Part shown: positions 9,750 through 62,741 of the stretch, in pieces | How positions within the stretch are numbered: the stretch's first letter is position 1 | How the letters are laid out: each line of letters opens with the position of its first letter | Source: a virus | IMG/VR virus record: IMGVR_UViG_3300024983_000001 | Location: 72,745-136,744 of that record | Strand: one strand, 5' to 3' | Length of the DNA stretch: 64,000 nucleotides | Made by a program: the position numbers and the translations under genes | The notes under the pieces: generated by a model | Told to the model about the DNA's origin: nothing | The model's database searches: none | What the model saw: the letters and a program-made list of their open reading frames with translations, nothing else

Positions 9750-10136
9750 TCAGTGTTCAAGCCACTGCCAGTCTGTTGTGTTATGAAAATTACCATCAAA
9801 ACAATGTTTAACTTCGTGACCAAGCGTCATCATACTTTCGGGTGTGTCGTCAGAATATACATAACACACATTATCTTTCCACCCATAACACCCCAAGGCT
9901 CCTGGAATGGGAAAGATAAAACCAATAACTCTTGAACACACAACTGGAATATCATCCTCTTTAACACGAATCCACCGTATTATGACGGGTGCATTTTTAT
10001 CCATTTGTTCTGGTGTTTGTTTACTACCTCTTATAATAAGGTACTTGGAATCAAAAGAGTCGCAGTCACCTTTACCTGCAAAGATGACTGCGACTATGAT
10101 GAATACTGTTAGTAATGTTACTTTTACATAATCCAT
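9750..10136 (-). CDS. Exported protein with HExxH metallopeptidase motif
   Basis: N-terminal hydrophobic segment; TLGHEVKHCF. Confidence 0.6.
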   Translation of the reverse strand: MDYVKVTLLTVFIIVAVIFAGKGDCDSFDSKYLIIRGSKQTPEQMDKNAPVIIRWIRVKEDDIPVVCSRVIGFIFPIPGALGCYGWKDNVCYVYSDDTPESMMTLGHEVKHCFDGNFHNTTDWQWLEH

Positions 10137-10189: not shown

Positions 10190-10750
10190 TTATCGTAGTT
10201 TTACAGGACTCGACTCTTTACCAGTTTTGAATGCGTTGTCGGCATAATCGTTGGTAATAGCCTTGTACTTTTCGAGGTCGATACGGGGATATCCAGCAAA
10301 ACGCATCCACATACCCTTCCACACATAACCAAGATTGGTGCTATATGCACGTTTGGCATCAATCAAGCGAGTTTGAGACATTTTAAATTCATCACGACCA
10401 GCTTCAACAATTTGTTGAATTTTGCGATAAAGTTGCGCATCAACAGTAGGGTTCTGTTCTTTCAGCCACTGAAACGTTGCCTTGCTGCCATCAGCACCAT
10501 AACGACCACTCAATGCTGCTGTGACCACTTCCTTCAAGTCATCTTTCATCATAGTGGGGACTTGGGCTGCTTCTTGCACCTTTTGGGTGTATTGAGCAAG
10601 GATGTTCTGGTTGTTTTCCCAAATTGCCTTGATCTCATTTTCTGCGGTGTTACCGTAATTGGCACTGCTAATATATGACGCAACTGCTATAAATATAATT
10701 GAGACGATTACACCAACAATCGACATAGTTGTTACGGTTTTTGAATTCAT
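10190..10750 (-). CDS. Membrane-anchored helical protein (LemA-like)
   Basis: Single N-terminal TM, helical body, IEAGR-type motif. Confidence 0.6.
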   Translation of the reverse strand: MNSKTVTTMSIVGVIVSIIFIAVASYISSANYGNTAENEIKAIWENNQNILAQYTQKVQEAAQVPTMMKDDLKEVVTAALSGRYGADGSKATFQWLKEQNPTVDAQLYRKIQQIVEAGRDEFKMSQTRLIDAKRAYSTNLGYVWKGMWMRFAGYPRIDLEKYKAITNDYADNAFKTGKESSPVKLR

Positions 10751-10821
10751 TATAAATCTCCAAGAGGTTGAAATTAACTACACAATAACTATACAATAAC
10801 AAAAACAAAGAGTCAACAATC

Positions 10822-59034: not shown

Positions 59035-59062
59035 TTGACTTTATAAATAAACAACGTATAAT
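59035..59062 (+). promoter_or_regulatory. Dual sigma70 + late promoter
   Basis: TTGACT-16 bp-TATAAT with TATAAATA inside the spacer. Confidence 0.8.
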
Positions 59063-59170
59063 AGATTTTGTTGTGATGAACACAGTTAATAATTCCCCCG
59101 GCGGGTTGAGTTGTTAACGACAGCGTAGATGAAAAAGTGTTCCTACGCTGACCTAATTTAAAGTAACAAT

Positions 59171-59247
59171 TGCGGGATGGAGCAGTGGTCAGCTCGCCGG
59201 TCTCATAAGCCGGAGGTCGTTGGTTCGAATCCAACTCCACGCAACCA
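59171..59247 (+). tRNA. tRNA-Met(CAT), initiator-like
   Basis: TGCGGGATGGAGCAG.., CTCATAA loop, CCA; one acceptor bulge. Confidence 0.8.
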
Positions 59248-59499
59248 AGAATTAGTTGGGTAGACGTACCCAAGAAGTAAACGCCAACCATCTTGGGAAC
59301 TAGGTGGTGATCGCAGGGAATCCAGCGTGCGAAAGGTGGCGGGGTAAAAGTCCTCACGAATAGTTCCCCGATATTGAAAAACATTCAATGCGACGTAGGC
59401 TGACAAGCGTCCCCCTGGTCGGATAAGGGTGAGAGTGGTGAAGGTAAGTGGTTAATCTTGCCTTCATACGATTTTTTGTAACCAGTTTTGAAAAATTGG

Positions 59500-59528
59500 T
59501 TGACTTTTATAAATAAGTCATATATAAT
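59500..59528 (+). promoter_or_regulatory. Dual sigma70 + late promoter of tRNA array
   Basis: TTGACT-17 bp-TATAAT with TATAAATA at 59508-59515. Confidence 0.85.
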
Positions 59529-59578
59529 TAATGTAACAATTGAGCAATGTGCTCGAAACCATTTAAGGAATGAATGAA

Positions 59579-59635
59579 ATGTTCACACTGAAGTCAAAAA
59601 GTTATTGTTCCAAACTCTTAGGGGGCTTATCCTAA
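59579..59635 (+). CDS. Attenuator leader peptide MFTLKSKSYCSKLLGGLS
   Basis: AAGGA SD 59565-59569; stop codon overlaps antiterminator strand. Confidence 0.8.
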   Translation: MFTLKSKSYCSKLLGGLS

Positions 59636-59703
59636 CGAGGCGACTTCGTTTGTTCATCCGAAACAGATTACTTCGCCCCGTTAGAAATAGCGGGGCTTTT
59701 TTT
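59618..59703 (+). terminator. Attenuator: 1:2, 2:3 (antiterminator), 3:4 (terminator)
   Basis: TTAGGG/TCCTAA; CTAACGAGGCGA/TCGCCCCGTTAG; GCCCCGTTA-GAAA-TAGCGGGGC-T7. Confidence 0.85.
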
Positions 59704-59715
59704 GTATGTAGTACT

Positions 59716-59731
59716 TGATCTTTTACAATTT
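59716..59731 (+). promoter_or_regulatory. rrn-type boxA-like antitermination site
   Basis: TGATCTTTTACAATTT versus TGCTCTTTAACAATTT. Confidence 0.6.
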
Positions 59732-59741
59732 GAAAATTTAT

Positions 59742-59815
59742 GCGGGTATGATGTAATGGTAGCCTGAAACCTTGCCGAGGTTTATGCCCCAGTTCGATTC
59801 TGGGTACCCGCTCCA
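59742..59815 (+). tRNA. tRNA-Gly(GCC)
   Basis: AAACC-TTGCCGA-GGTTT, TCCA end. Confidence 0.9.
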
Positions 59816-59832
59816 AAGAAGTTCTTTTTGGA

Positions 59833-59908
59833 GACCGTGTGACGAGAATGGTATTCGCCTGGATTGCAAACCCAGAATTCGTCAGTTCGATTCTGACCTC
59901 GGTCTCCA
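59833..59908 (+). tRNA. tRNA-Cys(GCA)
   Basis: TTGCAAA loop, U73, CCA. Confidence 0.85.
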
Positions 59909-59922
59909 AAGTGAATTTAAGG

Positions 59923-59995
59923 GCGTGCGTAGCTCAATTGGTAGAGCGTCTGGCTTCCAACCAGAATGTTGCAGGTTCGATTCCTGTCGCCCGCA
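59923..59995 (+). tRNA. tRNA-Gly(TCC)
   Basis: TCTGG-CTTCCAA-CCAGA; no encoded CCA. Confidence 0.85.
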
Positions 59996-60038
59996 CACAA
60001 TAGTAGAGTTGTCATAAATAGATATAGGAGGAACTATT

Positions 60039-60752
60039 ATGTTCTATTACATCTATCAAATCACCAACTTGGTGAATGGCAAAATCTACGTAGGAGTGCA
60101 CAAAACCGGCAATTTAGATGATGGTTATATGGGCTCTGGAAAAGTTATCAAACGAGCCATAAAGAAATATGGCATTGATAATTTTACAAAAGACGTGCTC
60201 GAATTTTTCGAGAGTGAAGAATTGATGTACGCAAAAGAGAAAGAAGTAGTAACTGAAAACTTTCTTGAGAGAGATGAAGTCTATAATTTACGCAGAGGTG
60301 GTTTGGGAGGATTTGACCATATTAATAAAAATTATGAAGAATTATGTATTCAAAATAGTAGAGCTAGAAAAAACACTGACAAAAAGTTGGAACAAAAATT
60401 AGGTAAGGATTGGAGGTCTGTAATAGGTAAGAAAGCTTCTGAAGCCGCACAACATCCATCCAGTAAAGCAAAACGACGCAAAACATTACTTGATAGAGGA
60501 ATACGGTCTGACGCTAGCTATATGCACACAGCAGAGGTTAATGAAAAAAGGAAACTTGCCTATAAACAAAACGGTCACTCGATCGGTGAAAAAAACTCAC
60601 AATTTGGTACTTGTGTGATAAGTTATCCATCGCTGGGTATAAAAAGAAAACGAATTAAAAAACATCTATTGTGTGAATATATCGATCAAGGTTGGATGTT
60701 AGGTGCCAAGAAGAAAGTATTTGAAATGTTTTATTTGGATGCTCCCCCGTAA
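60039..60752 (+). mobile_element. GIY-YIG homing endonuclease (Seg-like)
   Basis: YYIYQITNLVNGKIYVGVH..YMGSG..YNLRRGG; own ATAAATA promoter and AGGAGG SD. Confidence 0.9.
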
Positions 60753-60822
60753 TGGTATGGGCCCCGGCTGTAACCCGGTGAGCGGCTAGACCGAGTAGGT
60801 TCGATTCCTACAGCATCCACCA
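60737..60822 (+). tRNA. tRNA-Tyr(GTA)
   Basis: CCGG-CTGTAAC-CCGG, long variable arm, ACCA. Confidence 0.8.
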
Positions 60823-60839
60823 GTATTAAAATTTACATT

Positions 60840-60926
60840 GGGTCCATACGCTGCTAAGGACGCAGCCCGGTCTGTAAAACCGTAGCCTTTGTGCGTGGCA
60901 GGGATCGTTACCTGGACGGCGCACCA
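60840..60926 (+). tRNA. Atypical/pseudo tRNA-Tyr(GTA)
   Basis: CGGT-CTGTAAA-ACCG and ACCA, but weak acceptor stem and ATCGTTA T-loop. Confidence 0.5.
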
Positions 60927-60935
60927 GATTATTAT

Positions 60936-61064
60936 CACTGTGCTAGTTTAAAAGGCTAGAACACCTAACCAATAACACTTGTGACGTCCAGGTGTTGAGG
61001 TTCGGCGGGTCGCTCCCGTTTGTACAAAAGGAGGTGTGGGGTCGGTACCCACGCATGGTGTCCA
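60936..61064 (+). ncRNA. tRNA-like RNA with expanded anticodon domain
   Basis: 8-bp acceptor CACTGTGC/GCATGGTG, D- and T-arms, TCCA. Confidence 0.65.
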
Positions 61065-61074
61065 AATTAGTAAT

Positions 61075-61171
61075 GGAGATTGATCCCCCCGTCAGGCGCG
61101 TAACCTGATGTCTCTAAATAAGTCTGGGGGCGAATTAAGACGAGGTGGTTAAACTCCCCCAGTCTCCACCA
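61075..61171 (+). ncRNA. tRNA-like RNA (no canonical D-arm, CGT-loop hairpin)
   Basis: GGAGATTG/CAGTCTCC-ACCA; TCAGG-CGCGTAA-CCTGA. Confidence 0.55.
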
Positions 61172-61172
61172 T

Positions 61173-61247
61173 GTACCGCAAGCATTAATGGTGATGCAAT
61201 AGGCTCTTACCCTTTAGAACACGGATCGTTACCGTGGCGGTGCACCA
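61173..61247 (+). tRNA. tRNA-Lys(CTT)
   Basis: CTCTTAC loop, atypical ATCGTTA T-loop, ACCA. Confidence 0.75.
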
Positions 61248-61259
61248 ACGAATAATTTT

Positions 61260-61336
61260 GGGAGCGATGTCGACTGGGTAGACATCCGGCTTTTAACCGG
61301 AACACAGAGTGGGTTCGATTCCCTCCGCTCCCACCA
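61260..61336 (+). tRNA. tRNA-Lys(TTT)
   Basis: TCCGG-CTTTTAA-CCGGA, ACCA. Confidence 0.85.
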
Positions 61337-61420
61337 AAATTGAAATAGGTATGATCCGCGATACATGCGAAGGGACCCGGCTTGAAAGAGTACAGGTAAA
61401 ACTACAGCGGAAAAATATAT

Positions 61421-61505
61421 GCGTGAGTGGTGGAATGGTATACACGTTGGTCTAAGAAGCCAATGCCCTCGTGGATTGAGAGTTCGAGTCTCTCCTTACG
61501 CACCA
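61421..61505 (+). tRNA. tRNA-Leu(AAG)
   Basis: TTGGT-CTAAGAA-GCCAA, long variable arm, ACCA. Confidence 0.88.
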
Positions 61506-61508
61506 AAT

Positions 61509-61643
61509 ATCGAAGTGATGGGGAATTGGTATACCCTGGTGGTGGAATCATAGTGGGGAGCCCTGGGGAGCCAGGTAAGCGAAAGCGGTAACCCTTCCAA
61601 CAAACCGCAGCTTGTGTGGGTTCGAATCCCACCTTCGGTACCA
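61509..61643 (+). ncRNA. tRNA-like RNA with expanded anticodon domain
   Basis: ATCGAAG/CTTCGGT-ACCA, D-arm GGG-AATTGGTATA-CCC, GTGGGTTCGAATCCCAC. Confidence 0.7.
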
Positions 61644-61683
61644 GATAAGGAGGGCTCGAGTCCATGTCTCCTCCGCAAGTTAT

Positions 61684-61773
61684 GGAAGACGGGCAGGATG
61701 GTAATGCAGCGGATTGCTAATCCGTAGGCCCATTTACGTGGGTCACAGGGTTCGATTCCCTGGTCTTCCGCCA
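61684..61773 (+). tRNA. tRNA-Ser(GCT)
   Basis: GCGGA-TTGCTAA-TCCGT, long arm, GCCA. Confidence 0.9.
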
Positions 61774-61776
61774 TAT

Positions 61777-61874
61777 TTGACTGTGTTGTAATGGTAGCAA
61801 GGGGAAGTCCGAGGCGTGATGAGCGAAGTAGGCAACCAAATGCCCCCGAGGTGGTTCAATTCCACCCAGTCGAA
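61777..61874 (+). ncRNA. tRNA-like RNA with enlarged anticodon loop
   Basis: TTGACTG/CAGTCGA, D-arm, GGGG..CCCC, GGTGGTTCAATTCCACC. Confidence 0.6.
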
Positions 61875-61886
61875 TGAATAAGTTAT

Positions 61887-61965
61887 GCCCCTGTAGGCCA
61901 ATTAGGTAGAGTCGGTGGATTTAAAATCCATTTATGTGTCGGTTCGAATCCGACCAGGGGTACCA
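61887..61965 (+). tRNA. tRNA-Leu(TAA), short variable arm
   Basis: GTGGA-TTTAAAA-TCCAT, ACCA. Confidence 0.85.
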
Positions 61966-62096
61966 TATTAAAACACATCACCCTACCCAACGGGTGATAG
62001 ACAGTGGTTGGAAGGATCTATCCGTGTATTGGATTGCCGATGGAAGCTCCCGGGTTGCACCGGTGCCAAAGGACCCAATCGTGGTGTGTTTTAATA
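61966..62096 (+). ncRNA. Unknown structured RNA
   Basis: 16-bp closing stem TATTAAAACACATCAC/GTGGTGTGTTTTAATA. Confidence 0.6.
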
Positions 62097-62097
62097 T

Positions 62098-62193
62098 GGA
62101 GATGTTAGCCGAGTTGGCCTAGCGGCGGCTGTCTTGAAAACAGAGGGCCTGGTGTCCCCAGGTGTGTGAGTTCGAGTCTCACCTTCTCCGCCA
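62098..62193 (+). tRNA. tRNA-Ser(TGA)
   Basis: CTGT-CTTGAAA-ACAG, long arm, GCCA. Confidence 0.88.
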
Positions 62194-62305
62194 TATTTTT
62201 GTAGTCCATCCCAGGTGATGGGTAAATGGTGTTGCGAGCAGGTAATGCTGCTGATAAAGATCGAAGCGCAACTTAATAGGATTGTGTTCCACCTACTACA
62301 GCAAT

Positions 62306-62385
62306 GCCCGGGTACGCAATTTTGGTAAAGCGGCCTTCCTCAAAAGTAGGTGATTTTGTCAGTTCGACTCTGATCCCGGGTACCA
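62306..62385 (+). tRNA. tRNA-Leu(CAA), short variable arm
   Basis: CCTTC-CTCAAAA-GTAGG, ACCA. Confidence 0.75.
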
Positions 62386-62453
62386 AACAACATGCTGTGT
62401 ATCAGTCATAAGATGATGCGTAGTGCCACCGGGCAACCCCGTGGGTGGTGATT

Positions 62454-62530
62454 GCCCCCGTAGGCCAATTGGTAGAGTCACATGCCTTAGGAGCATGTCA
62501 GTGTCAGTTCGAATCTGACCGGGGGTACCA
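62454..62530 (+). tRNA. tRNA-Leu(TAG), short variable arm
   Basis: CATGC-CTTAGGA-GCATG, ACCA. Confidence 0.85.
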
Positions 62531-62542
62531 GATATTAGCAAC

Positions 62543-62619
62543 GCCCAGGTAGCGCAATCGGTAGAGGCAATAGATTCAAAACCTATTTAGTGTGGGTTCG
62601 AATCCCACCCTGGGCACCA
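62543..62619 (+). tRNA. tRNA-Leu(CAA), short variable arm
   Basis: ATAGA-TTCAAAA-CCTAT, ACCA. Confidence 0.8.
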
Positions 62620-62625
62620 AACAAC

Positions 62626-62741
62626 GCAAGCGTGGTGGAATGGTATACACTCTGGTCTTGTGCAGAGTATCTGCTAAAGCGGGTACTCGACAGAAGCCAG
62701 CGCCGTGAGGATTGAGAGTTCGAGTCTCTCCGCTTGCACCA
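62626..62741 (+). tRNA. tRNA-Leu (CAG or TAG) with 32-nt anticodon-loop insertion
   Basis: Body nearly identical to Leu(AAG) at 61421; hairpin insert 62659-62690. Confidence 0.8.

Follow-up and report, generated by a model that had tools for sequence, protein, structure and literature searches.

Why should the tRNA genes of a phage be preceded by a short translated-looking leader and a transcription terminator, and what would such a device respond to? The question is raised by a transfer RNA (tRNA) array in the 64,000-nucleotide (nt) stretch analysed here (the window), positions 72,745 to 136,744 of IMG/VR virus record IMGVR_UViG_3300024983_000001. The source contig is a 257,054 bp uncultured phage, 78% complete by CheckV and with 41% GC, in which two more arrays are organised in the same way. 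Positions in the ranges 59xxx–62xxx refer to the window and those marked "genome" to the whole contig; leader A is the window unit, leader B the unit at genome 176693 and leader C that at genome 200176. Considering the codons of these leaders and the alternative pairings of their transcripts, we conclude that they are very probably ribosome-coupled attenuators of the trp/his kind, answering slow decoding of the amino-acid families that their own arrays carry.

The anatomy of leader A is that of the original prediction, made from the letters alone. The promoter, the Shine-Dalgarno sequence, the 18-codon open reading frame (ORF) and the terminator are all where it had placed them, ahead of the first tRNA at 59742 (Table 1), so that a short ORF with a ribosome-binding site stands between promoter and first tRNA gene and an intrinsic terminator precedes the tRNA genes. 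The transcript would start at about 59535. The segment spanning the stop codon does pair at 11 of 12 positions with the 5' arm of the terminator (the 2:3 pairing), and the complete 2:3 arm folds at -20.9 kcal/mol. A hairpin of the first two segments (1:2) had also been described; it exists, but its strength is only -4.3 kcal/mol. This hairpin (59618-59635) and the one at 59540-59556 are candidate pause hairpins, 5' protection being another candidate role of the latter. After Met-Phe-Thr, 15 of 15 codons specify Leu, Lys, Ser, Tyr, Cys or Gly, just the six families of the array. This match (15 of 17 codons) has P=4e-6 under the genome's own amino-acid frequencies, a post hoc figure, and a run of 15 matched codons was reached in none of 200,000 draws. 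No Rfam family describes the leader RNA, matches to L10_leader and anti-hemB being far below cut-off.

Leaders B and C were not used in forming the hypothesis. Two further copies of the promoter and first ~55 transcribed bases of leader A, 90-93% identical, lie at genome 176693 and 200176, and because the start sites of both leaders were fixed by this homology, the test within the genome is free of selection by eye. Both ORFs are followed by a terminator and then by a tRNA array, of His, Pro, Trp, Ala, Phe, Glu and Thr families in B and of Val, Ile, Arg, Gln, Asp, Met and Asn in C. The three arrays divide the 20 amino acids 6/7/7, without overlap save one weak Lys call in array B. Unbroken runs of own-array codons extend over 15 codons in A, 22 in B and 15 in C, and every array family is present in its leader (7/7 in B, 7/7 in C). 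Random repartition of the 20 amino acids equals the match of leaders B and C alone at P=1.3e-5, and the alternative reading frames of these paralogous leaders gave no family match. Only 4 of the 115 consensus promoters in the genome come with a short ORF and a terminator, three of them being leaders A, B and C; the fourth, with an ORF of 21 codons, lies at genome 52263 (-) and not before tRNAs.

Whether leader codons covary with array content elsewhere had been proposed as a check, and they do so in the two further arrays here and in nine other phages. The comparison comprises 18 leader/array pairs from 10 phages, namely this one, eight relatives (seven metagenomic IMG/VR genomes and Ralstonia phage RsoM2USA) and the unrelated Caulobacter phage phiCbK. 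RsoM2USA (MG752970.1) has two leaders on the minus strand (112124-112047 and 87361-87248), whose arrays are split into P,C,E,Y,L,W,S,H,V and M,I,N,Q,K,R,F,A,V,D and whose codons match accordingly. Between one and three matched leaders are present in each of the seven IMG/VR relatives whose arrays are sizeable, every one with a split of its own. Two matched leaders were found in phiCbK (JX100813 49540-49677 and 51341-51439), where gp083 precedes Pro, Thr, Lys, Leu, His, Ala and Ser, and an unannotated ORF precedes Phe, Val, Ile, Gln and Arg. The match score of the 18 pairs is 12.3 versus 5.6+-0.7, a value that 0/200,000 permutations reach (10.0 versus 4.9 when this genome is left out). Of the 157 array families, 150 are present in their own leader. 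Related phages are non-independent samples in these statistics; array partitions differ between phages, so the match cannot be put down to descent from one common leader. The pairing of leader 1 of the relative G012 with a 14-family array was rejected, as a third leader sits inside that array. No matched leader was recovered by the filter used from XacN1, Xoo-sp13 and RAS14, a single clade counted as one observation, whose tRNAs are dispersed and have many promoters of their own.

Support for the trp/his attenuator that had been proposed comes both from this covariation across arrays and phages and from an antiterminator pairing that persists even though neither leaders nor terminators are related in sequence from phage to phage. 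Close to the end of the ORF, 14 of 17 leaders have a strand whose pairing with the 5' arm of the terminator is better than that of dinucleotide shuffles (P<0.05), versus 0/9 ordinary gene-end terminators taken as controls; one of the three leaders failing the test is the mis-paired G012 unit. The antiterminator is mutually exclusive with the terminator and lies within reach of the ribosome. We masked the ribosome footprint codon by codon on a transcript ending before the 3' arm of the terminator. Upstream pairing of the 5' arm of leader A was 0.87-0.89 with the ribosome at codons 2-15, 0.56 at codon 16 and 0.14 at the stop codon, and in leaders B and C and both RsoM2USA leaders it drops within 1-2 codons of the end of the matched run. 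The control codons are related to what the downstream genes produce, and in the model a ribosome stalled on them leaves the antiterminator free to form. The tail codons of leaders B and C, which are unmatched, are the antiterminator strand itself, and the codons of leader A from Gly16 onwards, at or beyond the modelled switch point, double as stem sequence. G-rich tail codons recur in most leaders irrespective of the array, so the Gly codons of leader A are probably as much stem as sensor.

From this arrangement we infer how the leader would be translated, how and in which direction it would switch and what would naturally trigger it. Host RNA polymerase would initiate at the sigma-70 promoter, and a ribosome would presumably load on the leader. 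With prompt decoding of Leu, Lys, Ser, Tyr and Cys (marginally Gly), the ribosome at the last codons would cover 59632-59643, the terminator would form and only an RNA of ~170 nt would be made. A ribosome waiting at codons 4-15, with working charged tRNA in short supply, would leave 59632-59643 to pair with the 5' arm of the terminator, and the polymerase would enter the tRNA genes, at least 14 in number. The new tRNA would speed decoding and shut the array off, in a negative feedback by its own products, and with three units splitting the 20 amino acids one third of the pool would be topped up at a time.

Regarding what is sensed, the match between leader and array is firm at the amino-acid level and weaker at the anticodon level. 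Leader A had also been thought to sample the isoacceptors of its array, which did not bear scrutiny: the set is not complete and its coverage is at chance level, with 11 of 12 anticodons represented (null 9.9, P=0.29); the leader contains no TTG for the two Leu-CAA tRNAs, and TCC, used twice, has no Ser-GGA in the array. Such sampling was significant in 0/15 leaders individually; pooled over 14 leaders, anticodon coverage was modestly above that obtained by synonymous recoding (155 versus 144.5+-3.3 or 147.6+-3.4). One slow codon is enough to relieve attenuation in the his leader of Salmonella, and changing His to Ser codons makes that leader respond to serine (PMC4046918), so a string of single codons can act as an OR gate. 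An attenuator cannot distinguish between cleavage of host tRNAs, their decay, excess demand and amino-acid shortage. Coverage of all 20 families fits equally well a host tRNA pool that decays as a long infection proceeds, a hypothesis summarised in PMC13015707; the latent period of RsoM2USA is 270 min (PMC8504454). The gene for ArfA, a ribosome-rescue factor, comes first past the terminator in RsoM2USA (L023:16845-16964 (-)) and in G012 (L128:8452-8565 (-)), and Pth2 (L023:8728-9123) ends the RsoM2USA block, a placement that fits a response to stalled ribosomes.

Several observations weigh against reading these units as attenuators. About a quarter of the tRNAs of the phage lie outside the three units, and the largest array of the relative G011 (30 tRNAs; L123, G011 346500-357500) yielded no leader, while the Leu/Tyr/Ser array of the same phage does have one. 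Leaders in other phages were chosen partly by eye among several short ORFs per terminator, which inflates the cross-phage match somewhat. The antiterminator of leader A, taken alone, reaches P=0.05-0.09 versus shuffles, and the set of nine controls is small. At equilibrium, the full transcript of leader A favours the terminator at nearly every ribosome position, and a 5' footprint of 15-18 nt re-exposes the antiterminator strand of B, C and several relatives when the ribosome is at the stop codon; taken together, these two results require that kinetics decide the outcome.

In a narrower reading with an identical mechanism, the attenuator would have been selected to sense when immune nucleases cut host tRNAs, and to release replacements. 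Known defences include PrrC, which cuts tRNA-Lys, and retron PtuAB, which depletes tRNA-Tyr, and rescue by phage tRNAs is established (PMC11555353, PMC11464382). Most families have 1-4 codons per leader (Tyr and Cys once in A), and codons so sparse would suit the long stall caused by tRNA loss better than mild starvation; the modest excess in pooled anticodon coverage and the co-location of ArfA and Pth2 in relatives also count in favour of such a role. We nevertheless hold it to be doubtful, though possible, given that the leaders span all 20 amino acids, that their partition varies by phage, that known nuclease targets are not favoured, that the attenuator is blind to cleavage as opposed to decay, demand or starvation, and that searches for ArfA and RNA ligase in this 78% complete genome were negative or below cut-off. 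As the three leaders cover all 20 amino acids, a purpose in counter-defence is indistinguishable from general tRNA shortage. It is quite possible, if tentative, that in several unrelated phage lineages two or three leader attenuators tile all 20 amino acids as an inducible, defence-agnostic counter to tRNA-targeting immunity; destruction or exhaustion of the host tRNAs in its set would cause each leader to activate the tRNA block behind it, together, in some phages, with genes for ribosome rescue.

Phage antitermination is common and the terminator dominates the equilibrium folds; conceivably the leader is translated but an antitermination protein of the phage, or the stage of infection, mainly governs read-through, or the sign is reversed, and matching codons serve a secondary tuning. 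This seems improbable to us, for it leaves unexplained both the match of codons to arrays across ten phages and the ending of the matched run at the onset of antiterminator-strand coverage. Even harder to credit is an untranslated T-box-like RNA whose triplets pair directly with tRNA anticodons: T-boxes do read tRNA by a codon and control a terminator (PMC2965389), but Rfam gives no T-box match here, the triplets follow one another without gaps in an open frame that has a Shine-Dalgarno sequence, ATG and stop in most copies, and it is not possible for every one of 15-40 neighbouring codons to form a specifier loop. That a leaky terminator or small RNA merely happens to stand before the array with an incidental short ORF is the explanation to which we attach practically no weight; short ORFs are common, the RNA belongs to no Rfam family and its whole-length folding z is only -2.2, but the match was found out of sample in two paralogues and nine other phages, and the permutation tests exclude chance.

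Table 1. Features of the window unit and its surroundings, of the paralogous leaders, and of unannotated phiCbK tRNAs.
Feature	Position	Strand	Remarks
Upstream unit: promoter (59035-59062) and initiator-like tRNA-Met(CAT) (59170-59243)	59035..59243	+	outside the attenuator
Sigma-70-type promoter, TTGACT, 17 nt, TATAAT	59500..59528	+	11/12 consensus; near-identical copies at genome 176693, 200176
5' hairpin	59540..59556	+	common to all three leaders of the phage; -6.3 kcal/mol
Shine-Dalgarno AAGGA	59565..59569	+	9 nt 5' of ATG; equal spacing in leader C
Leader A ORF, 18 codons + TAA, MFTLKSKSYCSKLLGGLS	59579..59635	+	codons 4-18 entirely from the array's six families
1:2 hairpin	59618..59635	+	weak; overlaps start of antiterminator strand
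Antiterminator strand	59632..59643	+	spans stop codon; pairs with 59673-59684
Apical hairpin within antiterminator arm	59646..59668	+	
Intrinsic terminator	59675..59703	+	9-bp stem 59675-59696 (-15.7 kcal/mol), T7 run to 59703
tRNA-Gly(GCC)	59742..59815	+	first tRNA of array
tRNA-Cys(GCA)	59833..59908	+	
tRNA-Gly(TCC)	59923..59996	+	
SegB-like GIY-YIG homing endonuclease	60039..60752	+	within array, overlaps tRNA-Tyr
tRNA-Tyr(GTA)	60737..60822	+	
Degenerate Tyr(GTA)-like tRNA	60841..60925	+	no call from ARAGORN or Rfam
tRNA-Lys(CTT)	61173..61247	+	
tRNA-Lys(TTT)	61260..61336	+	
tRNA-Leu(AAG)	61421..61505	+	
tRNA-Ser(GCT)	61684..61773	+	
tRNA-Leu(TAA)	61887..61965	+	short variable loop
tRNA-Ser(TGA)	62098..62193	+	
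tRNA-Leu(CAA)	62306..62385	+	short variable loop
tRNA-Leu(TAG)	62454..62530	+	short variable loop
tRNA-Leu(CAA)	62543..62619	+	short variable loop
tRNA-Leu, 32-nt hairpin insert in anticodon loop	62626..62741	+	TAG or CAG by choice of cut; array's final gene
Leader B ORF	genome 176772-176879		35 codons; then terminator, then tRNA array
Leader C ORF	genome 200254-200349		31 codons; then terminator, then tRNA array
phiCbK unannotated tRNAs	L130:11530-11620, 9955-10030, 10603-10760		

A promoter scan inside the window array revealed no strong promoter. The four tRNAs with Leu anticodons and short variable loops (Table 1) are unlike normal bacterial tRNA-Leu. The final gene has a counterpart at genome 138872-138987 (L014:8873-8988), a second tRNA-Leu whose anticodon loop is likewise interrupted by a 32-nt hairpin; these inserts are below group I intron size. 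Structured spacers separate the tRNAs at 60841-61172, 61509-61642, 61779-61876, 61968-62097 and 62198-62303, several of them bearing tRNA-like acceptor or T arms with expanded middles and having no Rfam match. Upstream of the unit, the tRNA-Met(CAT), which we take to be initiator-like from its tRNA-fMet features, stands outside the switch under its own promoter, as would be expected since an elongation stall cannot report initiator tRNA. Between this gene and the leader promoter lie ~225 nt of GC-rich, structured non-coding sequence (window 59245-59470), also without Rfam match. YqeY (L113:2643-3077) and ClpS (L119:3604-3948) lie in or adjoining arrays, and the phiCbK leaders name several tRNAs that lack GenBank annotation, those of Tyr (by eye), Thr, His, Ala, Ser and Arg.

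The genome as a whole carries ~55-60 tRNA genes plus a transfer-messenger RNA, and the phage has been seen in bioreactor and wastewater metagenomes. Window 59519-61510 is letter-identical in an independent contig from a 2020 bioreactor run; contigs from three further sequencing runs gave tRNA look-alikes only. RecA, PrkA and NAMPT identify Ralstonia phage RsoM2USA and the XacN1 group as the closest cultured kin, at a protein identity of only 40-60%, and because the RecA tree is unresolved at its base we claim no order of gains and losses. BLASTN of the region against cultured phages returned matches only to segB and tRNAs, the exact 19-nt 5' leader pattern had no match in viral contigs, and a search with the neighbouring gene led to one contig, without tRNAs. 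The genome is decoded with table 11; stop-codon recoding was considered and rejected, as long genes terminate at TAG and TGA and table 11 suffices for reading the conserved genes. A tRNA with a CUA anticodon (amber suppressor) is present at genome 59521-59596 (-) and is retained across the group (RsoM2USA, XacN1, Xoo-sp13, RAS14, G005, G008) despite table 11 genes. About 1 kb of non-coding, structured-looking sequence precedes tRNA-Pro/Gly at L011:12290-13300 (genome 182290-183300), and a similar ~1 kb stretch is found before tRNA-Pro in G005 (L114), possibly a large non-coding RNA.

The reasons why phages carry tRNAs have been debated for 50 years, with codon compensation, host decay and nuclease escape put forward. 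A switch reporting on the carried families would make the question directly testable, since whatever condition brings about read-through would be the one that the tRNAs serve. Such a device would be the first leader-peptide attenuator on tRNA genes to come to light in the literature searched, and through it the tRNA pool would be regulated in a closed feedback loop. It is present in two cultured phages, RsoM2USA and phiCbK (on harmless Caulobacter). Its leaders could be used to report tRNA-targeting defences in vivo, and unannotated tRNAs can be predicted from them (His, Ala, Thr and Arg in phiCbK).

Among known systems, hisL, trpL, leuL, pheL, thrL and ilvGMEDA share with the phage units a promoter, a short leader rich in the sensed codons, and an antiterminator overlapping an intrinsic terminator. 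The trpL, leuL, pheL, thrL and ilvGMEDA leaders follow one attenuation scheme, thrL and ilvGMEDA being multivalent, and leader-peptide attenuation also governs aminoacyl-tRNA synthetase genes in pheM-pheST. In the his model, a ribosome slowed by scarce charged tRNA permits read-through (PMC4046918). The phage units do not belong to the trpL/hisL/leuL/thrL/ilv families, for they have no Rfam leader match and the genes downstream are tRNAs. Bacillus hisS/hisZ leader peptides resemble them in attenuating a component of translation supply (PMC2965389), but hisS/hisZ and pheM-pheST are cellular, concern one amino acid and yield protein. T-box riboswitches likewise let the state of a tRNA decide between terminator and antiterminator; they bind uncharged tRNA directly, without translation, in contrast to the model for the phage leaders, in which Rfam detected neither stem I nor the antiterminator bulge consensus. 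The tRNA-Tyr and tRNA-Lys of T5/SP15, which rescue from retron-Eco7, PrrC and PARIS, are comparable in that phage tRNAs replace destroyed host tRNAs, but rescue there is credited to a strong promoter (PMC11555353) and, unlike here, no conditional leader is described. The literature searched, which left subscription journals mostly outside, contained no description of a leader-peptide attenuator on tRNA genes, and attenuation is not mentioned in the RsoM2USA paper, a jumbo-phage survey or a 2026 phage-tRNA study. The nearest functional parallel is the trn operon of Anabaena PCC 7120, an array of 26 tRNAs that is silent until translation is impaired, being induced by translational stress and repressed by TrcR (PMC8421152, PMC10272220). 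That control is exerted by a repressor protein at initiation and is not codon-specific, and neither "attenuat" nor "leader" occurs in the text of PMC8421152. What sets the phage units apart from the attenuators of amino-acid operons, whose leaders contain runs of 1-3 amino acids, is that they would sense 3-15 families at once, mostly through single interleaved codons, that they are viral and occur several to a genome, tiling the genetic code, and that they would regulate tRNAs, so that the output is the sensed molecule itself.

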